A stretch of 64,000 nt of DNA from assembly GCA_040387495.1 (NCBI GenBank), contig JAZKDQ010000006.1, positions 49,391 to 113,390 on the forward strand, in the 5' to 3' direction. The notes under the pieces are model-generated. The model saw nothing but the letters and a program-made list of their open reading frames with translations, ran no database searches and was not told where the DNA came from. Each line of letters begins with the position of its first letter. Position 1 is the first letter of the stretch. The stretch is from Pseudomonadota bacterium. Lineage in GTDB: Bacteria; Pseudomonadota; Alphaproteobacteria; Paracaedibacterales; CAIOTO01. Below are positions 1,200 to 40,078 of this stretch, one piece after another. Made by a program: the position numbers and the translations under genes.

Positions 1200-1596
1200 A
1201 ATTGAGTTACCCGTCAAATCATTTCACAAACTACTTCAGCCCGGCACAGCATAATGATGGGAATTTTATGTATTTAATTCCTCTGGATGGTCAATTTTTT
1301 TCATAAAAAGAGATGAGCTAAAAAGCTTGTCTAACAGGCATGTCGCACCCATTCACATAAGACAGCAAGGTCAAATTATCAAAAGCTGAGCATTATAGCT
1401 GCCTATATAATTTTCAAACGAGCCTTCGATAGAGAATTCATAAAAATAGAATAAAATACATGAATAAACAAAATCAATTTGTAAATGAGAAAATATATAT
1501 TATTTTTCAAACAACAACACTTGATTTTATTAGAGACCATCCCCATATTGTAGAATGTGGAATGAGAATGCATCACTAATAAGGAGAAAGCTCTAC

Positions 1597-3552: not shown

Positions 3553-3710
3553 TTACATGCTATTTATTCAAAAAAAAAAGAGTAGACAATCCGAATTGCA
3601 AATGGTATAAGCATACAGTATTCTTTTGATTCCTTTATAAGAAAAACTTAAAATACCTAAACCGTGCGCGATAAAAAAATATTTGCTAGAAATATAAAAA
3701 ACAGAAAGCC

Positions 3711-4217
3711 GTGAGAATGAATTTAAACTACGCCTTCTTTACTGCCACAATCGCTATGATTTTATCAGTGAATACTGCTACCAGTAATTTAATCCAGCAT
3801 GAAAATTATACAAAGTCAGATTTCAGAGACAGTGCAACTTATGTGTTTCTTGAAAGATTCAAAGCAGATGACTCTTTGCCTACGGTAGTTCCTGCAATTA
3901 AGGCTGCTAGCGTTGTGCATTCTGGTGATGCTGATCTTAACACAGCTCCACGTAAGTACACAAAAGCTGACTTCAGAAAAGCTGCAGATTATACATTTGT
4001 CGAAAATTTCAAAGCAGATGATTCTTTGCATCATGTAGAAAAAAGTGTTCCACAAGAACCAAAAAGGACCTGGCCCAGCTATATTGAAACAAAAGCGTCA
4101 GAAGGCTTGACTTACATATATAATTCCACAAAGAACGCATTTGGATCAGCTATGAGTTGGGGATCAAAATTATCTGCAAATCTATCTAGATACATTTCTG
4201 CCACATCATGGTTCTAA
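3711..4217 (+). CDS. Hypothetical secreted protein with an internal duplicated module of about 30 aa
   Basis: 168-aa ORF (GTG 3711 or ATG 3717) with a hydrophobic N-terminus. It contains two copies of Y-T-K-[SA]-D-F-R-x-[SA]-A-x-Y-x-F-[LV]-E-x-F-K-A-D-D-S-L. A good terminator follows. Confidence 0.55.
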   Translation: MRMNLNYAFFTATIAMILSVNTATSNLIQHENYTKSDFRDSATYVFLERFKADDSLPTVVPAIKAASVVHSGDADLNTAPRKYTKADFRKAADYTFVENFKADDSLHHVEKSVPQEPKRTWPSYIETKASEGLTYIYNSTKNAFGSAMSWGSKLSANLSRYISATSWF

Positions 4218-4240
4218 CGTATTAATTTACCATCCTACAT

Positions 4241-4276
4241 GCCGGCTTGAATTTCAACATTTAAGCCGGTTTTTTT
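4241..4276 (+). terminator. Rho-independent terminator between convergent genes
   Basis: GCCGGCTT - 14-nt loop - AAGCCGGT stem-loop followed by a T-run, 24 nt after the stop at 4217. Confidence 0.65.
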
Positions 4277-4311
4277 ATCCTTATGCATTAGTTCATGAAT
4301 ACGTCCTTCTT

Positions 4312-6620: not shown

Positions 6621-7505
6621 ATGCTAAAAGGTTCAATTGTAGCACTTATAACGCCATTTCGTTCTAATCAAATAGATGTCGTGGCCTTAAAACGCCTTTT
6701 AGAATGGCACCTATCTCAAGGCACCGATGGTATTGTTGTATGCGGCACAACAGGAGAAGCAGCCATGCTCACCCCAGAAGAACGTACCCTTATAATAAGC
6801 ATAGCTGTATCTGTACTAAAAGGTAAAGTACCTGTTATTGTTGGCTGCGGCACTTCGTCAACGGCTCAAACATTGACATTTATGCAAGAAGCCGAAACAT
6901 TAGGTGCCGATACCACACTTGTTGTAGCTCCTTATTATGTAAAGCCATCGCAACATGGAATTATCGAACACTTTAAAACTTTACATGAACATACACGGCT
7001 TCCCATTATCGTATACAATAACCCTGGGCGTGTTGGGGTAAATATCGAAATTGAAACAACAGTAAGGCTTTGTGAAATGCCGCGCATACTTGGTTTTAAA
7101 GACTCTCATTCTGACCCAACGCGTATTGCGGCATTAAGACTCGCTGTCGGAAATAAAATGTCTTTGCTTTCAGGTGAAGATAGCATTGCTTCCGCGCACA
7201 TGTTGTATGGTGCAGATGGTGCTATTTCCGTCTTAGGAAACGTTGTGCCTAACTTGTACAAACGCCTTATGAATGCATGGAAAACACACGATATTCAGGC
7301 ATTTACAAAGCTAACATTTGAATTGCATCCATTATGCACAGCTATTTCTGCCGAGACAAATCCATGCACAATTAAGTATGCTGTTTCTAAAATAGGTTAT
7401 TGCACAGCGGATGTACGCTTACCACTAACGCCTATTCGTCCTGAAACAGAAAAACGCATTGATGCAGCACTTACAACATTGAATAAAATGCCGAAAACGG
7501 CCTAG
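6621..7505 (+). CDS. dapA: 4-hydroxy-tetrahydrodipicolinate synthase
   Basis: 294 aa. It has the motifs GTDGIVVCGTTGE, YNNPGR and APYYVKP characteristic of DapA. Confidence 0.9.
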   Translation: MLKGSIVALITPFRSNQIDVVALKRLLEWHLSQGTDGIVVCGTTGEAAMLTPEERTLIISIAVSVLKGKVPVIVGCGTSSTAQTLTFMQEAETLGADTTLVVAPYYVKPSQHGIIEHFKTLHEHTRLPIIVYNNPGRVGVNIEIETTVRLCEMPRILGFKDSHSDPTRIAALRLAVGNKMSLLSGEDSIASAHMLYGADGAISVLGNVVPNLYKRLMNAWKTHDIQAFTKLTFELHPLCTAISAETNPCTIKYAVSKIGYCTADVRLPLTPIRPETEKRIDAALTTLNKMPKTA

Positions 7506-7520
7506 ATTAAGAGAACCAAT

Positions 7521-8012
7521 ATGAGTAAAGACAAAGACACAGACAATTACAAAGTTGTCGCACAAAACAAACGTGCACGCTTTGACTATGATCTAATCGA
7601 AATTATCGAGGCTGGGATCATGCTGAAAGGCAGTGAAGTTAAGTCTTTACGACTTGGCAAGAGCAGCATTAACGAAGCCTATATTGGCGAAATGACAGAA
7701 GAAGGTGCGGATCATTGTGGCCTTTATTTGATCAATGCAACCATATCCGAATATGCACAAGCAAATAGTTTTGGTCACGCCGAAAAACGTCCGCGATGTC
7801 TGCTTGTACGAAAACGGCAAATGAATAAGTTTTTAGGTTCCATCCGAAAAAAAGGAATGACTGTTGTTCCATTGCGCCTTTATTTCAATGGAAAAGGCAT
7901 TGCAAAGTTAGAAATTGCGTTGGCAAAAGGACGCCAAACACATGACAAACGCGCCGCCATTAAAGACCGTGATTGGGGCCGTGAAAAAGCACGTGTACTA
8001 AAGGGAGAATAA
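7521..8012 (+). CDS. smpB: SsrA-binding protein
   Basis: 163 aa. It has NKRARFDY...GSEVKSLR...AYI and a basic C-terminal tail, as in canonical SmpB. Confidence 0.9.
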   Translation: MSKDKDTDNYKVVAQNKRARFDYDLIEIIEAGIMLKGSEVKSLRLGKSSINEAYIGEMTEEGADHCGLYLINATISEYAQANSFGHAEKRPRCLLVRKRQMNKFLGSIRKKGMTVVPLRLYFNGKGIAKLEIALAKGRQTHDKRAAIKDRDWGREKARVLKGE

Positions 8013-8017
8013 GAAAC

Positions 8018-8879
8018 GCCCATTCAACATTGAAACACACCACTAGGAAACTCCTGGTTAATGACTTAAGAATCTCTCTGCTGGTGTTTCAAAATTTAAA
8101 CTAAAATGTGGTCTATTATTGAGTCCTTTCTCAACTTCTATAACCTGATCTTGCGTTAGCATAGTGAAGTTTGTTCCTTTTGGAAACTATTGCCGAACAA
8201 GACCATTTGTATGTTCATTCAAGCCACGTTCCCATGCATGATATGGTTTAGCAAAATAGAACAGTGCATTTAACGATTTGCTCACCTGCTCATGATCTGA
8301 AAACTCTTTCCCATTATCCGCTGTTAACGTATGAATCATTGCATGAATATGCTTTAAACGTCGAATGATGACTTCGCTAGCCGCGTGTGCCGTTGCTCTT
8401 GGAACAAGTTCAAGTCCAGCATGTTTGTCTTTTCAAAGCAAACGATAGATGCTTTTATGGCTGATCTTAATGCCGCTCTTTTAAGAGTCTGCCTGAAATT
8501 TGCACAGGACTTGATTGAGAATGGGTTAAGTGCCATTTGATTTTTTCAATGACTCCTGGCGTCAGTTTTCGTTTAACGCCACTGGCCTTGCTTTTCCTGT
8601 TTAATGTCTCTGCGTGGGCGTGTTGATAACGATAACCTCGTTTACCCTGGTTACGATTAATTTCTCATATGATGGTGGATGGCAGACCTGTAATTGCTTT
8701 GCTATGAAACGTTTTGACTTTCTACTTTTCAAAAGTCCATAAATCTGCATCTTTCATCTTGGATCAAATGCGTGCCGATTGCTCGATTCATGACAATCTC
8801 CTTTTTGCGATAGAGATCAGCTTAAATACACTTGACTTTTTTGTTATCCCCTAGTGGTGCGTTTCAATGTTGAATGGGC
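8018..8879 (-). mobile_element. Degenerate IS30-family insertion sequence (internally deleted, frameshifted), termini intact
   Basis: 30-bp terminal inverted repeats GCCCATTCAACATTGAAAC[A/G]CACCACTAGG lie at 8018-8047 and 8850-8879 (1 mismatch). GAAAC is present on both outer flanks (8013-8017, 8880-8884). The interior encodes IS30-type transposase pieces. Confidence 0.8.
8058..8791 (-). pseudogene. IS30-family transposase pseudogene
   Basis: Reverse-strand translation across several frames gives ...ISREINRNQGKRGYRYQHA...KLTPGVIEKIKWHL...SPVQISGRL... and ...TADNGKEFSDHEQVSKSLNALFYFAKPYHAWERGLNEHTNGLVRQ*FPKGTNF...NNRP.... It has multiple frameshifts and stops. The segment that should carry the first catalytic D is missing. 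Confidence 0.75.
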
Positions 8880-9293
8880 GAAACCTTTAATGAAATTACA
8901 CAAGGATTAGATTCAGGAACAAACTTTGCACATGTTTTACCTAAAAAAATAAGGGCATATTTGCAAGCTCAGGGTCAGGCAGAAATTCCTGCCGCCCCTG
9001 ATAATTTTCGTGCACCCACTCCTTCTCCATCTCAAGAAAGACATCTATCTCCTGCTCCACAGCCTAGAGCAGTAGAATATACATATATTGATGCAGGTGG
9101 AAATGTTAACTTAAATGGCAGAACCGTCGCTATGCAGTCCGTAAGAAATTATTACCTTGAAAATGAGATGAAAATTGAATCTGGGGTAAAAAATGCTCTT
9201 ACAAATTTATTTCCTACAGGCACAAATCAAACTGAAAGATCTAATGTAGAACTAGAAATACGACCTTATTTAAAAATAATTGGGATTGTTTAA
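8874..9293 (+). CDS. Orphan ORF, 139 aa, whose ATG lies inside the IS30 right inverted repeat
   Basis: ORF track only. No recognisable domain. It has a Pro/Ser-rich N-terminal third. The start codon (8874-8876) is part of the IS terminal repeat. Confidence 0.3.
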   Translation: MGETFNEITQGLDSGTNFAHVLPKKIRAYLQAQGQAEIPAAPDNFRAPTPSPSQERHLSPAPQPRAVEYTYIDAGGNVNLNGRTVAMQSVRNYYLENEMKIESGVKNALTNLFPTGTNQTERSNVELEIRPYLKIIGIV

Positions 9294-10583: not shown

Positions 10584-13500
10584 TTATGGGCGCATTTTAT
10601 ATAGACTAGCTTTAGACCATAAATTTGTGCCCGTTATTTCTTCAGGACCTTGTATGATTTTGGGACTCGTTGAATCTGAAAGGTCAATGAATATTGGTTC
10701 TTTTTTGTGAAAATCAGGATATTCTTTAAAACAAACTACAGAGTTGCTCATTTGACCATATGCATCGAGACATGAAAATGCTCTACCTAAGATTTTTTTC
10801 GCTCCATCCTTATGCGCTACTAATTGCCAAAATTCACTAACATAGCCATAAGATGACACATGATAACCTTTTTGTGATCCAGGTATATATTCAATCATAA
10901 GACTTCCCGAACCCTGAAAAGAAGAATCTGAGGGGAAACTTATACTTCCCAACTTTCGCTTTAAGGCAGGAATTGGGTCACCAAAATCCTTAGCATCATA
11001 TCGAAACGCACTTTCTGACGTTGTGGGCATGTTAAGATTTTTTCCCTGTTCAATATCCATGGCATCTCTCTGCGCCGCAGCACCTCTGGCTTCAGCTTCA
11101 TCCTCTTGCATGAACTGCCGCTGAAGAGTAGCTGTTAAATTACTTTGTATTTTTTTATAACTTTCACTTGTTTTATCGGGATGTGCATCAAGAGCCTCTT
11201 TAAAAAGCTCTATGGCACGCGGAAAATCGCGGACAACACCATTCGTTCCATTACGAAAAGCATCTGCATATTTATTAATCATATATGATAAACTATTTTG
11301 TATTACCTTATAATAACTGTTCGTTTTATCTGGGTATAAATAAAGACCTTCTTTGAAGAGTTTAATCGCACGCGGATAATCGCGAATAATATCATTCATT
11401 TGAAGAAATAAATCGGTCGCATATCCATGAAGGGTAGTTGCTAACTTACTTTGTATTTTCTTATAACTTTCACTCGTTTTATCGGGATGTACATTAAGAA
11501 CCTCTTTAAAAAGGTCTATGGCACGCGGAAAATTGCGGGTAATATAAACGTCATTCGTTCCATTACAACATTCAAGCGCATATGTAATAAGGGTATTTTC
11601 TAAATTACTTTGCAACTTCTTATAAAATTCCTTTGTTTTATCGGGAACCATATCAAGTGCTTCTTTAAAAAGCTCTATGGCACGCAGCAAATCGCGGACA
11701 ACATCGTTTGTTCCATTACGAAAATCATTTGCATATTCATTAAGTATAGTTGACAAACTAATTTGTATGTTTTTATAATTTTCACTCGTTTTATCTGGAT
11801 GTACATCAAGGGCTTCTTTAAAAAGTTCTATCGCACGTGGCAAATCGCGGGTACAACCATTCGTTTTATGAAATAAATGGCCCGCATATGTATTGAGGGT
11901 ATTTGCTAAATTACTTTGCATTCCCTTATAAGATTCCTCCGTTTTATCGGGATGTACATCAAGAGCCTCTTTAAAAAGTTCTATCGCACGCGGCAAATCG
12001 CGGGTACAACCATTCGGTCCATAAAATAAATGATGGCCCGCATATGTATTAAGGTAAAGCACTAAATTACTTTGCATTTCCTTATAAAATTCCTCCGTTT
12101 TATCGGGATGTACATCAAGAGCCTCTTTAAAAAGTTCAATCGCACGCGGCAAATCGCGGGTACAACCATTCGGTCCATGAAATAAATGATGGCCCGCATA
12201 TGCATTAAGGGAAATTGCTAAATTATTTTGTATTATTTTATAACTTTCACTCGTTTTATCGGGATGTACATCAAGAGCCTCTTTAAAAAGCTCTATGGCA
12301 CCCGGCAAATTGCGGACAATACCATTTGTTCCATTACGAAGATCATTTGCACATTCATTAAGTATAGTTGATAAATTAATTTTCAGCTTCTTATAATGCG
12401 CGCTCGTTTTTTCGGGATGTACATCAAGAACCTCTTTAAAAAACTCTATGGCACGTGGCAAATTGCGGACAATACCATTTGTTCCATTACGAAGATCATT
12501 TGCATATTCATTAAGTATAGTTGATAAATTAATTTTCAGCTTCTTATAAGGCGCGCTCGTTTTATCGGGATGTACATCAAGAACCTCTTTAAAAAACTCT
12601 ATGGCACGCGGCAAATTGCGGACAATACCATTTGTTCCATTACGAACATTATTTGCATATTCATTAAGTATAGTTGACAAAGTAATTTGGATATTTTTGT
12701 AAGAAATGTCAGTTTTATTGGGGTATATATCAATGGATTCTTTACAGATTATAGCAGCACGCAGCAAATCGCGGGTAGAACCATTGGTTCTATTAAATAA
12801 ATCGGTCGCATATGTATTAAGAGTACCTGCTAATTTTTTTTGTATAGTTTTATAAAGCGCGCTCGTTTTATCGGGATTTACATCAAGGGCTTCTTTAAAA
12901 AGTTCAATCGCACGCGGCAAATCGGGGGCAATACCATTTACTACATTACGAAGTTCTTTTGCATATTCATTAAGTATATTTGATAAATTAATTTGCATAG
13001 TTTCATAAGAATTTTCAGTTTTATCGGGATGTACATCAAGGGCTTCTTTAAAAATTTCAATCGCACGCGGCAAATCGCGGACAACACCATTTGTTCCATT
13101 GCCGAAATCAACTGCATATTTATTAAGTATAACTGCTAATTCACTTTGTATAGCTTCATAAGAAAAACTCTTTTTGTTGGGGTCTAAAGGATGAATTTTA
13201 TTGGGGTGCACATCAAGAGCTTCCTTATACAGTTCAATCGCACGCAGCGAATCACGAACAGGATTATTCTTGGCCTCTATACGCAATGCCTGCCATAGCC
13301 CTTTTGCATGTCCTTCGGCTAGTTTTTCATTAGTTACATTTAAAGAAAGACAAGCAAAACTAAGGTTATATATTTCACTCATGTGATCATTAGAAATAAT
13401 GCTATCTGAATTTAAAAGTAAATGTTCTAATTCTGATGGCACAGTGCGTTTAAACACAAGTAAAGGTAAAGGCATACCATCTACATCATGACCACGTGCC

Positions 13501-14462
13501 CGAAGTGTTGGGTTATAATAATAAGCAATAACCGCCTTTGTTATATCAGATTCAGAAGTTTTCACCCCACGTGAAGAGGTGGAATAAAGGGGATAGGACT
13601 CTGGATTATCAAATATATCTTTTACAAAAGCCACTCTTATCTCATTTTCCCTATTGAGATATTGTTGTTTTTCATCAAGTGTCAAGGTAACAACGTAAGA
13701 CCAGCTACTTAGCCCGTCGATTTCCCAACCTTTGTAATTTCCACCAGAAATAGCCAACTGGTCGTAAACTTTAAACAAATTCAATTTTGGCGCACAAAGA
13801 TCAAAAATATCTCCTGAAAGCCTGATGAGCTTTGGGTTTTGTATAAGCACATTGCGTACGGCACCCGTAAATGATGCCACAGTCTTAGCAGACCATCCAT
13901 GAGCTGTCATATTTTTAATAACAGAATCAACAAACGCTTCTGAAACTTCCGTATCTGCAGATTGCTGTAACCATAAATCAGCAAAATCTTCATTATCAAG
14001 TGCTGTTTGTGCTAGTGCGTCAATTGCCATAATTGATGCAAGTTGCGGTATTTCTGTAAGACCGTCGTTGGAGTCAAAATTAGGAATATAACGATTAATC
14101 ATACCACCCTTACCAAGACATGGCTGACCTGGGAAGGTCTGACGTGTTTGAATAACGGAATTAACAAGAAGATCTAGTGATTGACCTGATGGTAATGTCA
14201 CCTCTGTGCAAATTTTCATAATGCAACTAGAAATCTCAGCGGTTAATTCTTTAAGTGCCGAATAGTCATTAAAAATGGCCTGTTCACGACGCTTTTCAAG
14301 ATCACGTAAATCATGCAAGACTGAATCTGAGCTACGTACATCTAAGGATGTTGATGATTGGGCTACTTTAGAGGCTAGCTCACTTGCGAATGCGACGGTA
14401 AATGGAGCAAGTATTGCAAGCGTCAGCGCTGTAGATGCATAAAGGTATTTTTTGATTTTCAT
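10584..14462 (-). CDS. Large secreted repeat protein: signal peptide, N-terminal domain of about 400 aa, 14 x 51-aa TPR-like repeats, C-terminal domain of about 175 aa
   Basis: ORF track 10584..14510. Preferred start is ATG 14462 (MKIKKYLYASTALTLAILAPFTVAFASE). The repeat consensus is [VT]RDLPRAIELFKEALDVHPDKTSESYKKIQSNLxxxLNxYAxxxxNGTNG. The flanking domains are unrecognisable. Confidence 0.8.
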   Translation of the reverse strand: MKIKKYLYASTALTLAILAPFTVAFASELASKVAQSSTSLDVRSSDSVLHDLRDLEKRREQAIFNDYSALKELTAEISSCIMKICTEVTLPSGQSLDLLVNSVIQTRQTFPGQPCLGKGGMINRYIPNFDSNDGLTEIPQLASIMAIDALAQTALDNEDFADLWLQQSADTEVSEAFVDSVIKNMTAHGWSAKTVASFTGAVRNVLIQNPKLIRLSGDIFDLCAPKLNLFKVYDQLAISGGNYKGWEIDGLSSWSYVVTLTLDEKQQYLNRENEIRVAFVKDIFDNPESYPLYSTSSRGVKTSESDITKAVIAYYYNPTLRARGHDVDGMPLPLLVFKRTVPSELEHLLLNSDSIISNDHMSEIYNLSFACLSLNVTNEKLAEGHAKGLWQALRIEAKNNPVRDSLRAIELYKEALDVHPNKIHPLDPNKKSFSYEAIQSELAVILNKYAVDFGNGTNGVVRDLPRAIEIFKEALDVHPDKTENSYETMQINLSNILNEYAKELRNVVNGIAPDLPRAIELFKEALDVNPDKTSALYKTIQKKLAGTLNTYATDLFNRTNGSTRDLLRAAIICKESIDIYPNKTDISYKNIQITLSTILNEYANNVRNGTNGIVRNLPRAIEFFKEVLDVHPDKTSAPYKKLKINLSTILNEYANDLRNGTNGIVRNLPRAIEFFKEVLDVHPEKTSAHYKKLKINLSTILNECANDLRNGTNGIVRNLPGAIELFKEALDVHPDKTSESYKIIQNNLAISLNAYAGHHLFHGPNGCTRDLPRAIELFKEALDVHPDKTEEFYKEMQSNLVLYLNTYAGHHLFYGPNGCTRDLPRAIELFKEALDVHPDKTEESYKGMQSNLANTLNTYAGHLFHKTNGCTRDLPRAIELFKEALDVHPDKTSENYKNIQISLSTILNEYANDFRNGTNDVVRDLLRAIELFKEALDMVPDKTKEFYKKLQSNLENTLITYALECCNGTNDVYITRNFPRAIDLFKEVLNVHPDKTSESYKKIQSKLATTLHGYATDLFLQMNDIIRDYPRAIKLFKEGLYLYPDKTNSYYKVIQNSLSYMINKYADAFRNGTNGVVRDFPRAIELFKEALDAHPDKTSESYKKIQSNLTATLQRQFMQEDEAEARGAAAQRDAMDIEQGKNLNMPTTSESAFRYDAKDFGDPIPALKRKLGSISFPSDSSFQGSGSLMIEYIPGSQKGYHVSSYGYVSEFWQLVAHKDGAKKILGRAFSCLDAYGQMSNSVVCFKEYPDFHKKEPIFIDLSDSTSPKIIQGPEEITGTNLWSKASLYKMRP
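11110..13270 (-). repeat. Intragenic tandem repeat, 14 units, period mostly 153 bp
   Basis: The motif (C/T)ATGGCACGCGG / AATCGCACGCGG (reverse complement of the PRAIE codons) recurs near 11211, 11361, 11515, 11675, 11830, 11983, 12137, 12293, 12447, 12600, 12753, 12906, 13059 and 13240. Confidence 0.85.
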
Positions 14463-15119
14463 TTTTTTTCTCTTCTTTATTTTTATTATGTATGCGGCTG
14501 GAAGTACCATTGAGGGCTCTGTCGCAAATTTTTAGTAGAAGTAATTTTATTTTGAAAAGTTGTTTCTAAGTATAAAAAATTTGAGATTTTCAGCTCATTT
14601 TCTTTAAAGAGCATACTTACTTTTATAAAATTACTTAAAATTTCAGGATGCGATAGAACTGCCGCATTGCTTCTTGCTACGCAGCGGCAAGTTCATTCCC
14701 ATCATTCATACAAAAGCCGTTTCCCACAATAAATGTTTTTGTTAAAAATAATGCTAATTTTCTCATAATTATATTTCTTTTCGACATATTCGATTTTTCT
14801 ATACTTATTATATATACATGAAACAATAAATATTCAAGGAGGGAAATGAAAAAATATTTTAGCCGGATCATATGCCCTCTTTTTCGATGATTTTGGATAA
14901 AATAGCAATACCTATACTCCGTCGTCACTGTGAATCGGTTCTGAGCGCTGTAGTAGCTCATCCTTAACCAATATTCTAAAAAATGAATGTAAAAAGTTTG
15001 GCAGCTAGGGCAGTATTACAATCAGTAAGACGCATGAGAGTCAATAGTTTACTTCTAGTCAGTGTTTTTCTATTACTTCTTGAGGCATTGAAATTAAGAA
15101 AAATCTGACTGTAGGAAAT

Positions 15120-17636: not shown

Positions 17637-17933
17637 TCATGATATTAATTTCTTAATTTTAGTGTACGTACCATTTATTAGGGATTCGTTAATTTTAAAG
17701 GGCTTTAGGAGAAATTAATGTGAGATCAAAAATTTAATAGATTGCAGGTAAATTAACACCAAGAATACGATACATGCGTCATTGCGACCAGTTATTAGCC
17801 TATATTGAAATGATAATATAAAAAATAAATATTACCTTCAATTAACACCAAAATCTTTTGACTTTATTAATTAATTTAAGATAAAATTATATCTACATTG
17901 CTATATGTTTTATTTAACTGGAAGGAAACTCAA

Positions 17934-19628
17934 ATGCGCATTTCCCTAACACAAACAATCCTGCTCAGCACAGCCTTACTTACAATGAATTTTCCACTTT
18001 CAGCAATGGAGGATGGAGTTAATGGTAAAGATGGTGCCAATAAAGTCTCAACAACTGCAGCCGCTAAAGAGCAGACTGACCCATCACTACAAGAACCAAC
18101 CGCAAATATTATAATCCCAGTTAACAGTCCATATCAGGAAAAGGCAGAAAAACTTGCAAGATCTTTTTTTAATGATGAAGAAGAAGTAAAAGCATCATTA
18201 ACTATTTTTTGCCTAATAGCAGAACTTCTTGATAATAAAGATGCAGGTACTTCCCTACTTTCTTCTGACAATAGCTCAGTTTCAACAATAGTAAGTTTAA
18301 ACGTCCTAAATAACAGCACAGTAAGAGAAGCTGGAACTACAGAATCACTTGTTCTTTCCAATCAATTATCAACAGACACACAAAGTTTTATTTCAGGAAA
18401 TTTATTGTTAATTGCTGAACACCACAATCATCGACATCCTGACTTTAATGAAATTTACACTGTTTTAGCGGATGACTTTCTTAGCACTACACTTCCAAAT
18501 AATGCTCAAGGGAAAGTCTCTGGCACTCAAGAAACAACAGAACGGCTTACGAAAATTCATATGTTTTTCAAAGGATTGATTGATCAAACAAATTCAAAGA
18601 TACAAGAGCATACTTCATCTTTAGCAACTGCTGATACTCCTACGACAGAATCTGCAGCGCAAGTATTAATACAAGAATACAAAGCTCAAAATAATGAATT
18701 AAAAGAACGTCTGTTTAACTTATTAGAACATTTTTCAAATACTCGAAATTTTATTATACAAACAGATAAAACGATCTATAGCAAGATGAAGGTCATAAAA
18801 AACACAGCATCCCCTGACCTGTCATTTAAGAGTATAGGAGAAAAAACTAGCACGATCAGCAAGAATTTAGAAAGCGACATCTCTTATTTAAAAAAATTAA
18901 AAAGAGATTCCGAAACTCTTCTTCACACCCTATATGACTATGATCGTACCGATAGAGATTTGTCGGCAACCCCAAATCTTTTTGCAAAAGGTGTAGTTCT
19001 ATTCCAGGCAGCACTTACATCTGCTGCTGGCAATATTCTTAATCTAACAGAAGGACGAAAATTACGTTATGAGCGCACAGGTTATTCTACCTTGCCGCTT
19101 ACAATCAGCATATCATCAACATTTGTTTCTGAGAAATGTGAAGGTGCTACCGATCAAGCAACACACGAGCGCTATATAGAATATATAAAATCCATGATCA
19201 AACCCACACCAGCTTTATTTGATGCTATTAAAGCTAAACGTATTAAATTTGTTGGGCAAATAACTCCAGAAACAGAAAACAAAACTATTTCTAGTGCGAA
19301 TATTTGCTCATCAACTGCAAATTCAAAATTACTAGATGAAGCAAATGGAGAAAAAAGTGAGGAAAAAGATGAAATTGATGCACCAAGTGATGCGTTAGAC
19401 ACCCCTCCTAATGTTAAAGAAGATCTAAATGCTGCCAGCTTTAGTGAAGCTGGATCAGACGTTGATTGGTCTGCAGAACAGGCGGGCATTGTCACCATCC
19501 GACAGGAGTTTCCTGGTAATAATTACCAGATTGATTCTTGTGATGTAGATCCAATTGAATTAGCTAGTATTGATGAACTATATAGAATTAAACCAAATTT
19601 TAAATCCTTCGATCTTATAAAAAAATAA
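17934..19628 (+). CDS. Hypothetical secreted protein, 564 aa, acidic C-terminal region
   Basis: ORF track 17898..19628. Preferred start is ATG 17934 after GGAAGG. The signal-like N-terminus is MRISLTQTILLSTALLTMNFPLSAMEDG. No recognisable domain. A strong terminator follows. Confidence 0.6.
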   Translation: MRISLTQTILLSTALLTMNFPLSAMEDGVNGKDGANKVSTTAAAKEQTDPSLQEPTANIIIPVNSPYQEKAEKLARSFFNDEEEVKASLTIFCLIAELLDNKDAGTSLLSSDNSSVSTIVSLNVLNNSTVREAGTTESLVLSNQLSTDTQSFISGNLLLIAEHHNHRHPDFNEIYTVLADDFLSTTLPNNAQGKVSGTQETTERLTKIHMFFKGLIDQTNSKIQEHTSSLATADTPTTESAAQVLIQEYKAQNNELKERLFNLLEHFSNTRNFIIQTDKTIYSKMKVIKNTASPDLSFKSIGEKTSTISKNLESDISYLKKLKRDSETLLHTLYDYDRTDRDLSATPNLFAKGVVLFQAALTSAAGNILNLTEGRKLRYERTGYSTLPLTISISSTFVSEKCEGATDQATHERYIEYIKSMIKPTPALFDAIKAKRIKFVGQITPETENKTISSANICSSTANSKLLDEANGEKSEEKDEIDAPSDALDTPPNVKEDLNAASFSEAGSDVDWSAEQAGIVTIRQEFPGNNYQIDSCDVDPIELASIDELYRIKPNFKSFDLIKK

Positions 19629-19685: not shown

Positions 19686-19771
19686 GTATTACTCAATATT
19701 CATCTCACCCATTGCATTCCGGCCCAAATCACTTAAAATACACTCATAAAACAACCAAAAAGAACTGTCTT

Positions 19772-20797
19772 ATGCAGCCTTCTTATAGCAACATCCTTAT
19801 TATTTCAAATGGCGAGCTTATCGGTGACGGGCTCGTTAAGTTACCTTTTGTACGTGCTTTTAGACGAGAATTCCCAAGCGCTCATATCACATGGCTGGCA
19901 CGAAATGGATGCGTCTATGCAAACGTGTTGAAAGATATCATTGGCAACAACATAGACGAAGTTATTACCAATACACGCCTTGGAGAATCATTGTTAGATA
20001 TTGTGCGTCCTGCAGTTAGACCTAAGAGCGCAAAAAAATTCGATCTCATTATCAATCCAGAGCTCCGCTGGAATCGCACACTCGCGGCATATCGCATACC
20101 GCATCACACATTCTATTCGCGCCATAAGAATTTTGCATTGTCAGACATCAAACAAAACTTATCCATCCCCAGACGACCGCCTCATGTGTTGGACGACCTC
20201 ATGTGGCTTTTATCGAATGTGTGCGAGCGAGAAATAGAAGCAGATCACGCACCAATAACTGTTCCCGACACCTATTCGAAATTAGCAGAAGCCCTTGTGC
20301 CAGAAGCTGACATCGGACGAGCCATCGGCTTAGCACCAGGCTCAGGTGGACGCAATAAATGCTGGTCCCTTGAATCATATATTGCACTTGGACAGAAATT
20401 GCTACGTGAAGGGTTACTGCCTGTGTACCTGATTGGCCCACAAGAGTTGGAATGGCACCCCATTATTCGTGACTCTGTGCCAAATGCATTGTTTCCACTT
20501 CAAGGAACAGATGATCGATCTGTGTATGTCACCTTAGCGGTTGCTAAACGCCTTCGAGCTGGTATTGCGAATGATGCAGGGGGCGCACATTTAATGGCAA
20601 CGGCAGCATCACTACCGCTAATTGTGCTATATGGCCCTACCCCACCAACGGAATTCGTACCAAATACAAAGCATTTTTATCCCATGCCTGTTCAAGAATT
20701 TGGGTTCGCATCTCTCGATAAGTTACCTGTGGATACAGTGCATGACCGAATTAGATTAGTTTTGGAAAAAGAAAATAGAACCATTTACTCTCGTTAG
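19772..20797 (+). CDS. Glycosyltransferase family 9 (LPS heptosyltransferase-like)
   Basis: From M at 19772: NILIISNGELIGDGLV..., GLAPGSGGRNKCW and IANDAGGAHLMA, which are GT9 hallmark segments. Confidence 0.75.
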   Translation: MQPSYSNILIISNGELIGDGLVKLPFVRAFRREFPSAHITWLARNGCVYANVLKDIIGNNIDEVITNTRLGESLLDIVRPAVRPKSAKKFDLIINPELRWNRTLAAYRIPHHTFYSRHKNFALSDIKQNLSIPRRPPHVLDDLMWLLSNVCEREIEADHAPITVPDTYSKLAEALVPEADIGRAIGLAPGSGGRNKCWSLESYIALGQKLLREGLLPVYLIGPQELEWHPIIRDSVPNALFPLQGTDDRSVYVTLAVAKRLRAGIANDAGGAHLMATAASLPLIVLYGPTPPTEFVPNTKHFYPMPVQEFGFASLDKLPVDTVHDRIRLVLEKENRTIYSR

Positions 20798-34793: not shown

Positions 34794-35036
34794 AACTGCT
34801 CCTTAAAAAATCAATGACTGTAGTGTTCAATGGCATAAATGCTCCTTGATCGACCGTCATGATTAGAATAAATCGACAATAGTTAAAATCGAGTAAAGGC
34901 AGAAAAAAATAATGTGAGAATGTGCATTTTTTTGTTGAATCAGATCCTTGTGTTCTACTAAATATATTTGAACCTATTCTTAATCCAGAAAAATCTTGAT
35001 TTATCACTTAAGTTACCTTATGTTCAAAAGTGCAAT

Positions 35037-35112
35037 GTCCCCTTCGTCTAGTGGCCTAGGATACCACCCTCTCACGGTGTAGACACGGGTTCGACTCCCG
35101 TAGGGGACGCCA
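35037..35112 (+). tRNA. tRNA-Glu (anticodon CUC)
   Basis: GTCCCCT acceptor stem pairs with AGGGGAC. The anticodon stem CCACC/GGTGT has loop CT-CTC-AC. T-arm is ACGGG-TTCGACT-CCCGT. A 3-prime GCCA is encoded. Confidence 0.9.
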
Positions 35113-35182
35113 AATTTCAGTCTTATGATGTCCAGTATTGTTTTAAAATTCCTATAAATACGATTACGAAAAACATATAACA

Positions 35183-35935
35183 ATGCTCACAGACCCTCCC
35201 CGTCCCTTTTGGCAACATGTGGCAGAACTGCGCACTGCAGTTATTATTTCGCTGACATTCTTTCTGATTGGCACAGGCGTTGCTTATTTTTTATCTGAAC
35301 CCATTTTTCATATTCTTGTGTCACCGCTGGAACAACTCTTCGCAATCAAAGGCGAGGCACGTCGATTCATATACACCAACCTTACCGAAGCATTTGTCAC
35401 TTATCTTAAAGTTGCTCTCTTTGCTGGGCTATTTTTCACATTTCCTTTTATCGCACTACAAGCATGGTTATTCATTAGTCCAGGATTATTCAAACGCGAG
35501 CGAGGACTTTTTTTCGTTCTGTTATTTTCAATTCCATTCTTTTTCACTGTTGGCGCTCTTTTTGCCTACTATATTGTTTTACCTGCTGCATTTTCGTTCT
35601 TTTTAAGTTTTGAAACAATGATCGGCAGCATACCATTGCAGTTAGAAACCAGAATGAGCGAATATTTATCGCTCGTCATGCGAATGCTGTTGGCATTTGG
35701 GCTTAGTTTTGAGCTGCCTGTTATTTTAGGCGGTCTCGCTTGGCTCGGCATACTCTCGAAAGAGACATTAATCAAACCTTGGCGTTTAGCCGTTGTAGGT
35801 GTGACATTTCTTGCCGCCATTATTACGCCACCTGATGCGCTCAGCATGATTTTGCTCGCACTGCCGTTGCTATTTTTATATGCTTTATCTATTATTGTCG
35901 TTAGCTTTATAGAAAAACATAAAAACCATGCATGA
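35183..35935 (+). CDS. tatC: Sec-independent protein translocase TatC, copy 1
   Basis: 250 aa, 6 [15 protein letters not shown]..., ...PGLFKRERG... and ...ITPPDALSM... typical of TatC. It is identical to copy 2 except for residue 2. Confidence 0.85.
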   Translation: MLTDPPRPFWQHVAELRTAVIISLTFFLIGTGVAYFLSEPIFHILVSPLEQLFAIKGEARRFIYTNLTEAFVTYLKVALFAGLFFTFPFIALQAWLFISPGLFKRERGLFFVLLFSIPFFFTVGALFAYYIVLPAAFSFFLSFETMIGSIPLQLETRMSEYLSLVMRMLLAFGLSFELPVILGGLAWLGILSKETLIKPWRLAVVGVTFLAAIITPPDALSMILLALPLLFLYALSIIVVSFIEKHKNHA

Positions 35936-35989
35936 CATTAAATTTATTCGCAGCACCCCTGATCAATTCAACGCCGGCCTTGCGCGTCG
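35928..35989 (+). pseudogene. Truncated 5-prime fragment of serS (first 20 codons)
   Basis: [20 protein letters not shown] matches the start of the full serS at 38810. Similarity ends at 35989 and the sequence continues into IS982-type sequence. Confidence 0.8.
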
Positions 35990-36017
35990 CAAAAAGTTGA
36001 ACATTACTTTGTCTTAA

Positions 36018-36455
36018 GGCCATCCTTTTATCACACAACATGGCCCTGTTGTAGGAGATGAAGTGGCGGTTGCCAATATTGATGAACGTGGTATTCTGCC
36101 AAAGATTCTTAGCAATCGAAGTGGCATGTTGCTTGGTGATAAAGGACTCATTCATCCTACATTGGAAGCAATGCTTGCACAGCAGAATTTAAATCTACAA
36201 ACACCTTTGCGTCGGAACATGCCTGATTCGAGGCCTAAAAAACTCGTTTCTACAATGATGAATATGCGCCGCATTGTTGAGACAATGATTGGACAACTCG
36301 TCGATCTCTTTCATATACGGTCAATTAAAGCTAAAGATATATGACATTTATCCGCAAAAGTGGGACGAAAAATATTGGCTTACACTGTTTATTTTATGTT
36401 TAACTCAATCGTAAATCCTGAAACACCCCTGGCATTCAAGTTGCGACTTGATTAA
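36018..36455 (+). pseudogene. IS982-family transposase, C-terminal fragment with an internal stop
   Basis: Translation ...VAVANIDERGILPKILSNRSGMLLGDKGLIHPTLEAMLAQQNLNLQTPLRRNMPD...RRIVETMIGQLVDLFHIRSIKAKDI*HLSAKVGRKILAYTV... follows the IS982 pattern (ANV.D...L.GDKGY.S...L.TP.R.NM...R..IET...QL). The N-terminal half is absent. Confidence 0.7.
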
Positions 36456-36643
36456 AAAAAACTTGATTGCCGCGTTATATCTTACCACAATCCATTCAGT
36501 GCATCGATAAGTTCACAACAACCAAGCATCTAAAGCTTTATCTAAAAAGAAAATTCCGCTAGATTACTGTCTAAGAAGGAAAAAGTGAAATCTTTTTATT
36601 TTACTTTCTAGAATCTTCATCAATATTTTCAAAAGGCTTTCCC

Positions 36644-37951
36644 ATGCGCTTAACCTCTATAAAAATTCTGCCGCTGCTATTTACAATTTTTTGTAATGAC
36701 ATTTGCAATGCATCAACACAAGAAATTTCAAAAGATCTTGCGGTTTTGGCAAAACAATTTACAGGACGTTTTTTAAAGAATGGTTATTCACAATCTGACA
36801 TTTACGATGCATTGATTTACCTCAGGAAGCAAACTGAAATGAACATTTATGTTTACACATTTAAAAACAAAACATGGACAATGATTCCTTTTAGTCCTCA
36901 AAAAGACTGTTCAACAAACTATCCACAATCTCGATTATTACTTTCATGGCTGAATGAAAACGCAACAAAAAAGATAAAAGAAGGTTTTACCTTCTGTAGC
37001 GTCCCTCAAGAACCAATCCATGACAATAGTTGGCTGGGAGAAGAACGCCAAATAAAAATAAGGCATTTATTTGATACATGTCCAGTTTTAGCAACATGCA
37101 CTCATCCTGAGATTTTATGGACAGAAAATGCCGTACTTATTCCAGATTATTTTATTTTAAATGAAAACTATTATTCAAATTGTAATGAAATAATAAAAGA
37201 AAACAATACTTCTTTTGTGAATAGAAAACCAGTCATTTTCTTTCGCGGAGCAATAACAGGTGCCTATTCTCAGATACAATATGACATGGAAAGTATAAAA
37301 AAAGATGATCGTTTAGTGTTATTTGGCATGTCAAAAGAAAAAGAATTTATTGATGCAAAAATAACTGCTGACTATTGGCTGGATAACGAAGGAAAGGCAA
37401 CCGTAGATTTTCTAAACTGGTACAAACACAATTTAACCAGCAGAAAAAGTGCTCCCGTAGATTTTATAGCGCATGCCCAAAATAAGTATCTTATATCGAT
37501 TGATGGATTCGGAGCAGCATGGTCACGTGTCCCCTATATTTTATTTACAGGATCTGTCTTATTATTACGCGCAGATTGCAAACAATATTTTTATAAATTA
37601 CTCACGCCGAAGAAAACGCATGTTGAGATAAATCGCTATTTAACAAACATTGAAGAAGTTTACACATATCTTGAACAAAATCCTAAAGTTGCAGAATCTA
37701 TTGCCAATAACGGCAAAGCTTTTGCTGAAAAATACTTGATAAAAGACGCGATTGATACATATCTAACACATGTTATTTATGATTTAAATGAGGCATACTA
37801 TGAGCCCACGGGATGGATGAACAAAACTATTCTTGCATTCAAAAAAATAAGATTTCAAATCGCAGAAATCAAATATGCATCAAAAAGATATTTCAGAAAA
37901 CATTTAAAACCGTATTTTATGAGATTAAAATCAATAACCCATAATATTTAA
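36644..37951 (+). CDS. Glycosyltransferase family 90 (CAP10 / protein O-glucosyltransferase-like) with N-terminal signal sequence
   Basis: 435 aa. RKPVIFFRGAITG..., KYLISIDGFGAAWSRVPYILFTGSVLLL..., YFYKLLTPKKTHVEINRYLTNIEEVYTYLEQNPKVAESIANNGKAFAEKYL aligns by eye with the C-terminal catalytic region of POGLUT1/KDELC/CAP10 proteins. The gene is AT-rich. Confidence 0.75.
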   Translation: MRLTSIKILPLLFTIFCNDICNASTQEISKDLAVLAKQFTGRFLKNGYSQSDIYDALIYLRKQTEMNIYVYTFKNKTWTMIPFSPQKDCSTNYPQSRLLLSWLNENATKKIKEGFTFCSVPQEPIHDNSWLGEERQIKIRHLFDTCPVLATCTHPEILWTENAVLIPDYFILNENYYSNCNEIIKENNTSFVNRKPVIFFRGAITGAYSQIQYDMESIKKDDRLVLFGMSKEKEFIDAKITADYWLDNEGKATVDFLNWYKHNLTSRKSAPVDFIAHAQNKYLISIDGFGAAWSRVPYILFTGSVLLLRADCKQYFYKLLTPKKTHVEINRYLTNIEEVYTYLEQNPKVAESIANNGKAFAEKYLIKDAIDTYLTHVIYDLNEAYYEPTGWMNKTILAFKKIRFQIAEIKYASKRYFRKHLKPYFMRLKSITHNI

Positions 37952-38064
37952 GCTTCGTTGAAAAAGCATGCACCACATATGAAGTCAGAAACTATAATTC
38001 TAATGAAACCAGATTAAATTGATGCTCCAATCAATATAAAAAGAGAAAAATTGCATATATTATC

Positions 38065-38817
38065 ATGATCACAGACCCTCCCCGTCCGTTTTGGCAACAT
38101 GTGGCAGAACTGCGCACTGCAGTTATTATTTCGCTGACATTCTTTCTGATTGGCACAGGCGTTGCTTATTTTTTATCTGAACCCATTTTTCATATTCTTG
38201 TGTCACCGCTGGAACAACTCTTCGCAATCAAAGGCGAGGCACGTCGATTCATATACACCAACCTTACCGAAGCATTTGTCACTTATCTTAAAGTTGCTCT
38301 CTTTGCTGGGCTATTTTTCACATTTCCTTTTATCGCACTACAAGCATGGTTATTCATTAGTCCAGGATTATTCAAACGCGAGCGAGGACTTTTTTTCGTT
38401 CTGTTATTTTCAATTCCATTCTTTTTCACTGTTGGCGCTCTTTTTGCCTACTATATTGTTTTACCTGCTGCATTTTCGTTCTTTTTAAGTTTTGAAACAA
38501 TGATCGGCAGCATACCATTGCAGTTAGAAACCAGAATGAGCGAATATTTATCGCTCGTCATGCGAATGCTGTTGGCATTTGGGCTTAGTTTTGAGCTGCC
38601 TGTTATTTTAGGCGGTCTCGCTTGGCTCGGCATACTCTCGAAAGAGACATTAATCAAACCTTGGCGTTTAGCCGTTGTAGGTGTGACATTTCTTGCCGCC
38701 ATTATTACGCCACCTGATGCGCTCAGCATGATTTTGCTCGCACTGCCGTTGCTATTTTTATATGCTTTATCTATTATTGTCGTTAGCTTTATAGAAAAAC
38801 ATAAAAACCATGCATGA
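38065..38817 (+). CDS. tatC: Sec-independent protein translocase TatC, copy 2 (contiguous with full-length serS)
   Basis: 250 aa, same motifs as copy 1. Its stop overlaps the serS start (ATGCATGA). Confidence 0.9.
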
Positions 38818-38871
38818 CATTAAATTTATTCGCAGCACCCCTGATCAATTCGACGCCGGCCTTGCGCGCCG
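38065..38871 (+). repeat. Direct repeat 2 (807 bp) of the tatC-serS-prime duplication
   Basis: See 35183-35989. Confidence 0.9.
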
Positions 38872-40078
38872 TGGCCTCAATGCACAAGCGGAAGAAATTC
38901 TAGATCTTGATACAAAGCTTCGTCAGATTCAAACGGATTTACAAGATTTCCAAACACGTCGCAACGCAATTGCCAAAGAATTTGGTGCAATAAAAAAAAC
39001 AGGCGGAGACACATCATTTCTTACTGCTGAAAATGATAAAATAAAAGAAAAGATGACCATCCTCGAAGTAGAAATGCTTGCATTTGAAAATGAATTGCAC
39101 TCCGTTCTATCATATATCCCCAACTTACCTGCAGCGGATTGTCCTGATGGAAAAACCGAAGCAGAAAACGTAGAAATTCGCCGTCATGGCACCCCACGTG
39201 AATTTGATTTTACACCAAAGCAGCATTTTGAGATTGGTGAGAACCTAAAAATGATGGATTTTGAACGTGCCGCTAAAATGTCAGGTTCACGCTTTGTTGT
39301 GCTCACCGGGCAGCTTGCCCGATTAGAGCGTGCCATTGCTCAATTCATGCTTGATACGCACACAGGCACTTTTGGTTACACCGAGGCTTATGTACCATTA
39401 CTTGTGCATGACGCAGCTCCTTATGGTGTTGCGCATTTGCCAAAATTTGCCGACGATATGTTTAAAACCACGACTGGGCACTGGTTAACATCAACATCTG
39501 AAGTAACACTAACTAACTTGGTAGCGGGTGATATTTTAACAGAAGCAGAGCTACCACTACGTTTTACAGCCTATAGCCAATGCTTTAGATCAGAAGCAGG
39601 ATCGGCCGGCAAAGACACCCGTGGCATGATTCGTCAGCATCAGTTTTCAAAAGTTGAACTTGTTAGTATTACATTGCCTGAACAATCCCTTGCTGAACAT
39701 GAACGCATGACAGAGGCCGCTGAAACAATTCTGAAAAAGCTTGAATTACCATTTAGAACACTAGTACTTTGTACTGGCGATATGGGCTTTGCGTCTGAAA
39801 AAACATACGATTTAGAAGTGTGGCTGCCAGGGCAAAACGCTTATCGTGAAATTTCAAGCTGCTCACGCTGCAATGACTTTCAAGCACGCCGTATGAATAC
39901 ACGATATAAATCTAAAGCAGACGGCAAAAATTACTTTGTGCATACCTTAAATGGTTCTGGGTTGGCTGTTGGCCGCACAATGGTTGCGATTTTAGAAAAT
40001 TATCAGCAAGCTGATGGCTCAGTAATGATACCAGATGTGTTGCTACCTTATATGGGCGGCGTCACGATTATTAGGTGA
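38810..40078 (+). CDS. serS: Seryl-tRNA synthetase
   Basis: 422 aa. N-terminal coiled-coil arm and class II motifs (...[21 protein letters not shown]..., ...GSGLAVGRT...). Confidence 0.95.

Follow-up and report, generated by a model that had tools for sequence, protein, structure and literature searches.

POGLUT1, POGLUT2 and Rumi are animal protein O-glucosyltransferases, and POGLUT-type enzymes O-glycosylate epidermal growth factor (EGF) repeats. POGLUT1 carries an N-terminal signal peptide and has its catalytic domain topologically outside the cytosol (PMC7803782). Among bacterial enzymes of the same glycosyltransferase (GT) family, GT90 or CAP10, our literature search returned a single characterised case, XpApiT of Xanthomonas pisi, an apiosyltransferase with the CAP10 domain in its C-terminal ~200 amino acids (aa), which uses UDP-apiose as donor and whose acceptor is not known (PMC6193724); searches for bacterial GT90 effectors and for GT90 in Paracaedibacter gave nothing relevant beyond it. 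Two bacterial enzymes of other families use host nucleotide sugars: Lst of Neisseria gonorrhoeae is a surface-exposed Leloir-type sialyltransferase that caps the bacterium's own lipooligosaccharide (LOS) with host CMP-sialic acid (PMC4324315), and GlgA of Chlamydia trachomatis is a GT-B enzyme, secreted from the bacterium, that uses host UDP-glucose (PMC4829429). Here we describe a GT90 gene at positions 36644-37951 of a 64,000-nucleotide stretch (the window) of contig JAZKDQ010000006.1, from the metagenome-assembled genome (MAG) of a Pseudomonadota bacterium placed in the Paracaedibacterales. The gene is a further member of a known family and was annotated as such beforehand, its NCBI product being labelled "glycosyl transferase family 90". 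What is new is a corrected start that adds an export signal, the evidence that the gene is syntenic and fast-evolving and not mobile cargo, and the expansions of exported GT90s in intracellular bacteria. Our preferred reading, held with middling confidence, is that the gene specifies a functional, Sec-exported GT90 from a vertically kept, two-paralogue family of a Paracaedibacteraceae-like lineage, probably acting on a host UDP-sugar at the envelope.

Family, fold and export signal of the GT90 protein

The open reading frame (ORF) at 36644-37951 encodes a genuine GT90/CAP10 glycosyltransferase of GT-B fold. Its parts are as follows.

36644..37951, + strand: GT90 (CAP10-type) glycosyltransferase gene, "long" clade of the family; 435-aa ORF with ATG start (PF05686, AlphaFold, Foldseek)
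36644..36712, + strand: predicted Sec-type signal peptide, residues 1-23 (MRLTSIKILPLLFTIFCNDICNA, followed by ST; inspection, hydropathy scan, homologue alignment)
36713..37198, + strand: N-terminal (acceptor-side) domain, residues 24-185; family-specific, the more divergent half, no sequence alignment to POGLUT1
37199..37798, + strand: C-terminal nucleotide-sugar-binding domain, residues 186-385 (hhalign to POGLUT1, conserved motifs)
37814..37948, + strand: C-terminal basic amphipathic helix of 45 residues, 391-435, found in the long-clade members (window, P0002, P0003)

The Pfam model PF05686 (Glyco_transf_90) matches residues 186-379 with an E value of 4.7e-16 (59.1 bits, cutoff 24), and a precomputed match to it exists for 17/17 homologues of the protein. 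A phmmer search of the PDB with the window protein returned POGLUT1 (5.6e-8), POGLUT2 (8.4e-8) and Rumi (1.8e-3), for which the family profile gave 4e-14, 1e-13 and 2e-8, respectively. An AlphaFold2 model built from the family alignment (predicted local distance difference test [pLDDT] 85, predicted template-modelling score [pTM] 0.84) was compared to the PDB with Foldseek. The top four matches are again POGLUT1, POGLUT2 and Rumi (E 2e-15 to 1e-13), the best reaching a template-modelling (TM) score of 0.76, normalised to the target, over 404 aligned columns, most of the model length; generic GT-B enzymes in the list score E ~1e-5 or weaker. Using hhalign, the C-terminal domain was aligned to POGLUT1 residues 192-366 with a probability of 97%. 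The N-terminal domain gave no sequence alignment in this comparison, the POGLUT1 query being verified by the PDB only from ~residue 217 onward. The aligned blocks are the three segments that an earlier sequence-only reading of this DNA had picked by eye (on the POGLUT1 side YFRG, a further block, and VHYIPV...AQEIAERGSQFIRNHL). These findings bear out the family call made in that reading; the structure prediction and conserved-residue check that it had proposed gave a GT90-type fold with the donor-side motifs kept.

All family members share R201 (in FFRG), D287-G288 (in KYLISIDG), R295 and S304, and in a set of 119 diverse GT90s the conservation of these residues is 90% or higher, as it is for G202, R223 and Y282. 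In the hhalign pairs, R201 of FFRG falls on YFRG, D287-G288 of KYLISIDG on KYLFNFRG, and R295 on the Arg of POGLUT1 SFRFKH. The donor side of the window enzyme is intact. In the N-terminal domain, the family-invariant TCTHP occupies residues 151-155, and the P167-D168 pair is nearly invariant across the 119 GT90s. Invariant family residues include E123, H126, H154 and D168; the catalytic base of POGLUT1, Asp133, has no mapped counterpart, as the N-terminal domains do not align by sequence. The model ends in a single predicted helix (391-433) with 12 Lys plus Arg, one Asp plus Glu and the highest hydrophobic moment in the protein. The helix is aligned in P0002 and P0003; P0004, P0016 and P0017 have shorter tails. 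Such a basic amphipathic tail suggests membrane association or retention. The protein terminates in ...KSITHNI and lacks a KDEL-like endoplasmic reticulum (ER) retention tail.

The N terminus was examined by inspection and hydropathy scan for the hallmarks of a Sec signal (positive charge in the n-region, an h-region of 7-15 residues, and small side chains at -3 and -1). R2 and K7 make up the n-region, followed by a hydrophobic core of ~14 residues that includes ILPLLFTIFC, and by C-N-A at -3 to -1, then S. Nearly all full-length homologues have one or two basic residues, a hydrophobic core of 12-15 residues and a C/S-x-A motif, as in SNA/T, CHA/T, CHA/V, SHA/M, SQA/V and CKA/D (CNA/S in the window; the slash marks the putative cleavage point). 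Mean identity in the segment is just 25% among homologues, yet C or S at -3 and A at -1 are kept in most. The segment has pLDDT < 50 in the model, and inspection revealed neither a lipobox nor a twin-arginine motif. We consider the signal real, with the pattern of a predicted signal-peptidase-I (SPase I) site; the earlier suggestion of a secretion signal is strengthened by the persistence of this pattern across homologues with complete N-termini. The NCBI product (P0001) is 401 aa long and starts at residue 35, which cuts off the export signal, and the Logan gene call on the same DNA yields the 435-aa product. The public gene model is too short.

Alternatively, the hydrophobic segment might merely anchor a lipopolysaccharide (LPS)/O-antigen glycosyltransferase to the cytoplasmic face of the membrane, in line with the "lipopolysaccharide-modifying" annotation given to CAP10 proteins. 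This would agree with the location of homologue P0004 in a polysaccharide cluster, with the presence in the window of a GT9 heptosyltransferase gene (19712-20797), which implies that the genome makes LPS, and with the case of XpApiT, encoded in a sugar-nucleotide operon and using UDP-apiose (PMC6193724). It fits poorly with an h-region of just ~12-15 residues, with positive charges before and net negative charge after it, and with the small-x-Ala motif, which together predict an N-in, C-out orientation and cleavage. Cytoplasmic-type GT90s from actinomycetes and Solilutibacter have no such segment, and the gene has no glycan cluster around it, either in the window or in five relatives. The conserved cleavage motif makes an exported enzyme the likelier of the two, and we regard a classical LPS transferase of the cytoplasmic face as quite unlikely.

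Synteny, relatives and the repeated tatC segment

In each of five related genomes, tatC-serS is preceded by a GT90 gene, with no insertion sequence (IS) at this site; in four of them, GT90 and tatC are direct neighbours.

L002/L003: GT90, 57-bp gap, tatC; no IS
P0002 contig: GT90-GT90-tatC-serS, 13-bp gap; no IS
L007: GT90, 11-bp gap, tatC; no IS
L041: GT90, 30-bp gap, tatC; no IS
L008: GT90, one extra gene, tatC; no IS

Identity to the window is 90-94% for tatC, 89-91% for serS and 78-79% for lnt, and L007 remains collinear with the window for 6 kb more downstream. L041 was the sole family locus added by the metagenome scan. The extra gene of L008 (3882-4814) specifies a protein of 310 aa that bears a membrane anchor at its N terminus and matches nothing in Pfam or the PDB. 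Upstream of the exonuclease-GT90-tatC block, L007 has two signal-bearing proteins of the DIT1_PvcA (isocyanide-synthase-like) family and a 937-aa repeat-rich protein without a Pfam match (6749-8940 and 1876-4689).

A paralogue, P0009 (388 aa, 50% identical), is found on the same contig, ~1.9 kb left of the window start and on the opposite strand (L001 8001-9167; L001 1-6126 is 100% identical to window 6126-1). It sits between an RNase D-like exonuclease gene and tRNA-Arg/BamB-like/Der, and the same exonuclease gene flanks the GT90 of L007, L008 and L041. A neighbour-joining tree separates a "long" clade (window, P0002 and P0003, with P0004 as sister) from a "short" clade (P0005-P0014, L007, L008, P0009). 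Likely, the ancestral order was exo(-)-GT90short-GT90long-tatC-serS-lnt, and the window lineage broke it between the two paralogues, where an IS remnant now sits. The elements around the break are these.

35037..35112, + strand: tRNA-Glu(CTC), directly 5' of tatC copy 1; bounds the rearranged segment on the left (ARAGORN)
35187..35989, + strand: repeat copy 1, intact tatC (35183-35935; TIGR00945, E 1e-54) with the initial 60 nt of serS (35928-35989); abuts the IS remnant
35990..36450 (right end estimated), + strand: decayed, 5'-truncated remnant of the IS982 family, with an ORF at 36063-36344 (NF033520, PF13612)
38069..38871, + strand: repeat copy 2, tatC (38065-38817) and the start of intact serS (38810-40078); ancestral block, collinear with L007, L008, L002 and L041
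40243-41766: lnt, downstream of serS

The segments 35187-35989 and 38069-38871 form an 803-bp direct repeat with four mismatches, all near the two ends, a distribution that suggests gene conversion or a recent event. The two intact tatC genes of the window differ by one residue (L2 versus I2). The IS982 ORF covers positions 133-225 of the 243 in NF033520 (E 5e-21) and also matches PF13612. The remnant has in-frame stops and ends ~200 nt 5' of the GT90 gene, which lies outside it. No other IS982 copy was found in the window or in related loci, inverted repeats or target duplication were not identified, and the region gave no match to plasmids. An independent Logan contig from the same sample (L040, k=31) is 100% identical to window 35940-38118 and ends exactly 30 nt past the copy-specific variants on each side, as expected for a true repeat at k=31; both junctions are therefore real. 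The layout described in the sequence-only reading, with tatC repeats flanking GT90 and a piece of IS982 upstream of it, is thus correct. Its interpretation of GT90 as the cargo of a cassette is not, as five relatives hold the gene upstream of tatC without an IS and the one decayed remnant is on one side only. The synteny and the single decayed remnant indicate that the GT90-tatC-serS-lnt block is ancestral; consequently, the upstream tatC copy, the serS fragment and the IS remnant represent a lineage-specific scar. An IS-borne or composite-transposon origin was discarded, there being no bracketing IS copies and GT90 being present at the same site in relatives.

The duplication of tatC has several possible histories: tandem duplication plus deletion, Campbell-type integration, or repair of an IS break by copying of the downstream tatC. 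The left repeat edge falls exactly at the tatC start codon. This edge and the confinement of mismatches to the vicinity of both ends could stem from Campbell-type integration of a related fragment with subsequent gene conversion, or else from IS-break repair.

Base composition bears on the same question. At 0.322, the GC content of GT90 is the lowest of the 49 window ORFs (mean 0.409, sd 0.034, z -2.6), and in this respect the AT-richness relative to the flanks proposed in the sequence-only reading stands. GC at third codon positions (GC3) is 0.257, versus 0.326 for the window (z -1.4), no outlier, which places much of the shift in codon positions 1 and 2. In relatives, GT90 genes have a GC content near their own locus means. 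One scenario would have the gene acquired recently within the lineage, as a circular [IS982'-GT90-tatC-serS'] molecule from a related strain that integrated by Campbell-type homologous recombination at tatC. GT90 would then count as cargo, but with a donor inside the lineage and not a eukaryote. It would account for the H-C-H structure with 803-bp direct repeats, for a left edge at the tatC start codon, where homology between differing contexts would begin, for the lowest GC in the window at a gene that elsewhere matches its surroundings, and for the use of the tatC 3' end as a repeated insertion point in L002. The two tatC copies are 99.5% identical, and with relatives ~18% apart in DNA this scenario needs a donor of nearly the same strain or gene conversion. 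Moreover, relatives have the same GT90-tatC-serS-lnt order, which is most simply read as vertical inheritance, GC3 is not deviant and the IS remnant is decayed. On balance, such an acquisition strikes us as improbable.

Some additional observations concern this region. The tRNA-Glu(CTC) gene and its flanks (window 34969-35137) are 92% identical to L008 8654-8823; the tRNA is downstream of lnt in L008 and upstream of tatC copy 1 in the window, hence the tRNA has been part of a local rearrangement. Neither tatC copy was seen to have tatA or tatB as a neighbour. In L002 (10046-13290), the last ~58 nt of tatC are present three times at a spacing of ~1.6 kb, enclosing two insert ORFs of 282 and 320 aa, each of which has a signal peptide and no Pfam match; each insert is followed by a ~380-nt repeat that opens with a GTCATCCCCG...GGGGATCC palindromic motif. 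From this triplication, the tatC/serS junction seems rearrangement-prone and a recurrent insertion site. Promoter scans at the locus did not rise above shuffled background, and a scan for terminators between GT90 and tatC copy 2 found none. We put the 29-nt inverted repeat that brackets the gene (36586-36614 / 37829-37857, 76% complementary) down to chance in AT-rich DNA.

The family proper comprises 18 clusters among 5.8 billion proteins, and all named ones are from Paracaedibacteraceae, Alphaproteobacteria or Pseudomonadota MAGs. With an E cutoff of 1e-3, an exhaustive profile search returned 3553 representatives. Beyond the family itself, the next tier (aligned over the full length, E 1e-81 to 1e-50) includes an entry named "MAG: GT90 [Pseudomonadota bacterium]". 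Of the top 150 representatives, 43 share 40% identity or more with a GT90 or family member of the fetched loci, which are mainly those of Rickettsiales, Gammaproteobacteria, Actinoplanes, Nonomuraea and Solilutibacter. Scores with the family hidden Markov model (HMM) are distributed as follows.

Family members: 290-690 bits
Rickettsiales, actinomycetes, Solilutibacter: 100-135 bits
Human POGLUT1: 54 bits
Legionella, Chlamydiae, Francisellaceae: ~40-65 bits
Giant-virus MAGs: 30-50 bits

Human POGLUT1 does no better than the GT90s of Legionella or Chlamydiae. No eukaryotic name occurs among the near relatives, many close representatives being anonymous metagenomic proteins and protist GT90s not having been sampled explicitly. 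Cluster look-ups of the 30 nearest representatives gave only MAG names from Pseudomonadota or Alphaproteobacteria, and word-indexed searches of proteins, run with the family alignment and with a broad one of 119 sequences, added almost no further named relatives. The viral scan found only distant giant-virus GT90s. The sequence-only reading had viewed the gene as eukaryote-type and possibly moved between domains, adding that placement in an alphaproteobacterial clade would speak against transfer. The named nearest outgroups are bacterial, and the family is a small alphaproteobacterial one with two paralogue clades and conserved synteny. On the relatives that carry a name, a recent eukaryote-to-bacterium transfer was thus rejected, their nearest tiers being bacterial, synteny conserved, and GC low but GC3 in range. 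The exported bacterial GT90s may nonetheless descend from eukaryotes in the distant past, which would explain the signal peptide. On the viral side, matches of the model in BFVD indicate that giant viruses (Hokovirus, Hyperionvirus, Terrestrivirus, Pithovirus) commonly have domains of GT90 fold, which also occur in "tyrosine kinase/LPS-modifying" proteins of iridoviruses and ascoviruses; giant-virus MAG contigs L096 and L097 carry distant GT90 relatives.

The divergence of GT90 orthologues far outpaces that of adjoining genes and falls mostly within the acceptor-side domain. In the long clade, the GT90s of the window and L002 are 60% identical, against 90% for tatC and 91% for serS. In the short clade, P0009 is 66% and 78% identical to its counterparts in L007 and L008, against 95% and 86% for the exonuclease. 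Between the window protein and its closest relative, P0002 (72% identity), the N-terminal domain is 60% identical and the C-terminal domain 86%.

Site of action and possible substrates

Outside the cytoplasm, bacteria have no nucleotide sugars of their own. On our preferred reading, a cleavable Sec signal peptide would carry the GT90 across the inner membrane, and the catalytic domain would end up outside the cytoplasm; with an extracytoplasmic catalytic domain and no endogenous nucleotide sugars there, the donor is most likely a host-derived UDP-sugar. This would be of the UDP-Glc or UDP-Xyl type and reach the periplasm or surface of an intracellular bacterium. The basic amphipathic C-terminal helix would hold the enzyme at the membrane. 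The acceptor, the weakest step of the proposal, would be a bacterial envelope glycoconjugate, either LPS/LOS or an envelope protein. The logic would be akin to that of gonococcal Lst and of secreted chlamydial GlgA. We favour an envelope acceptor because the Sec signal is the only one present, because of the basic amphipathic tail, and because one homologue, P0004, lies in a surface-glycan cluster. In this Ca. Paracaedibacteraceae MAG (GCA_030694965.1, L004 6703-10789), the order is GT2-rmlC-rmlB-rmlD-rmlA-GT2-GT11-GT90-(GT10-like), and GT11, GT90 and the GT10-like protein (519 aa, weak GT10 match) all have N-terminal hydrophobic anchors or signals. The three may constitute an extracytoplasmic, "Golgi-like" glycosylation suite.

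Signal-like N-termini recur among bacterial GT90s and are present in ~30 of ~40 GT90 ORFs in named bacterial loci, including 6-7 tandem copies in one Rickettsiales MAG; the GT90s of free-living Actinoplanes, Nonomuraea and Solilutibacter have no N-terminal hydrophobic segment. Tandem arrays of 3-7 paralogues, almost all with signal-like N-termini, occur in L018 (4243-13708), L019 (6912-10867), L022 (8268-12186) and L030 (9440-13374), from Rickettsiales and one Gammaproteobacteria MAG. The two arrays whose flanks were examined, L018 and L019, are surrounded by lpdA, rodA/ftsW, prfB, maf, clpB, hemB and glyQS, with no polysaccharide cluster.

A second possibility takes up the effector idea of the sequence-only reading: the protein would leave the bacterium after Sec export (through a type II secretion system, in vesicles or upon lysis) and O-glycosylate host proteins of the cytosol or endomembranes in the manner of POGLUTs. 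The closest solved structures are protein O-glucosyltransferases and the acceptor-side domain evolves fast; the Rickettsiales arrays of 3-7 signal-bearing GT90s stand among housekeeping genes outside LPS clusters, and GT90 relatives are found across amoeba-associated Legionella, Francisellaceae, Parachlamydiales and Simkaniaceae. Set against this, a Sec signal is all that is visible, and neither a signal for a secretion system nor neighbouring secretion genes turned up; the protein lacks a KDEL-type tail, and its sequence does not resemble the EGF-binding N-terminal domain of POGLUT1; one homologue belongs to an rml/GT2/GT11 surface-glycan cluster; and the basic amphipathic tail suggests retention at the membrane. 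We see a role as secreted effector as the main alternative to our preferred reading, though an unlikely one. A role in host-glycan mimicry or as effector, taken together, is plausible because the protein is predicted to be exported, evolves fast and has expanded in intracellular lineages.

Several points count against action at the envelope on a host sugar. We know of no direct precedent for a Leloir-type GT-B enzyme in the bacterial periplasm. Export and activity are predicted only. The catalytic base of POGLUT1 (Asp133) cannot be mapped, the N-terminal domains not aligning by sequence. In the window and five relatives, GT90 is located outside polysaccharide clusters. The host association of the MAG is deduced only from its relatives and from gene content (the TPR/Sel1 protein). 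As for vertical descent, the lowest GC of the window and a repeat edge at the tatC start fit re-acquisition from a relative better than random duplication. The gene content in question includes a 1308-aa TPR/Sel1-repeat protein (10584-14510, - strand) and two large low-GC ORFs of 665 and 576 aa without Pfam match (1555-3552 and 17898-19628, both + strand); TPR/Sel1 proteins and large low-GC genes of this sort are typical of host-associated bacteria.

More tentatively, and as a reading that we hold to be rather unlikely, signal-bearing GT90s may make up a hitherto overlooked group of exported glycosyltransferases among intracellular bacteria that live with protists. They would act on host nucleotide sugars outside the cytoplasm, in some genomes alongside anchored GT11 and GT10-like enzymes as a "Golgi-like" suite, and would make host-mimicking surface glycans or modify host proteins. 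Candidate members are the Paracaedibacteraceae-like family, the 3-7-copy arrays of Rickettsiales, and the copies of Legionellales, Francisellaceae and Chlamydiae. To our knowledge, no bacterial GT90 of the signal-bearing kind has been characterised, and expansions of this type are seen in several intracellular lineages that are not related to one another. For a Leloir-type transferase, export makes biochemical sense only with nucleotide sugars available outside, which would imply direct use of host metabolites by an intracellular bacterium. If the idea of an exported enzyme is true, these proteins become candidates for the mimicry of surface glycans or the modification of the host by protist symbionts that have received little study.

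Comparison with known systems

The window protein has in common with POGLUT1, POGLUT2 and Rumi the Pfam family, the GT-B fold and the donor-domain motifs and, as predicted, resembles POGLUT1 in having an N-terminal signal peptide and a catalytic domain outside the cytosol. It differs in that only the C-terminal domain aligns by sequence to POGLUT1, at ~24% identity, Asp133 and the EGF-contact residues of POGLUT1 having no mapped counterparts in the sequence alignment, and in that a basic amphipathic helix takes the place of a KDEL-like tail. With the family profile, POGLUT1 scores 54 bits, versus 100-290 bits for bacterial GT90s. Membership in the POGLUT subfamily was rejected on these grounds (no KDEL-like tail, no N-domain sequence similarity, lower scores against POGLUTs than against bacterial GT90s). 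IS982-family insertion sequences are represented by the upstream ORF, which matches their transposase models NF033520 and PF13612; unlike an intact element, it retains only positions 133-225 of 243, with stops and no second copy, and GT90 is outside it.

Shell et al. 2002 is reportedly the work cited for the surface exposure of gonococcal Lst. Lst belongs to another GT family and transfers another sugar; the analogy is one of how the enzyme might work, by inference only. GlgA likewise compares at the level of working principle only, as it is exported by type III secretion and not by a Sec signal, is a GT5 enzyme and makes glycogen. Within GT90, XpApiT shares an operon with UDP-apiose synthase, and its description makes no mention of a signal peptide or transmembrane segment (PMC6193724), whereas the window GT90 has a predicted signal peptide and no sugar-nucleotide genes nearby.

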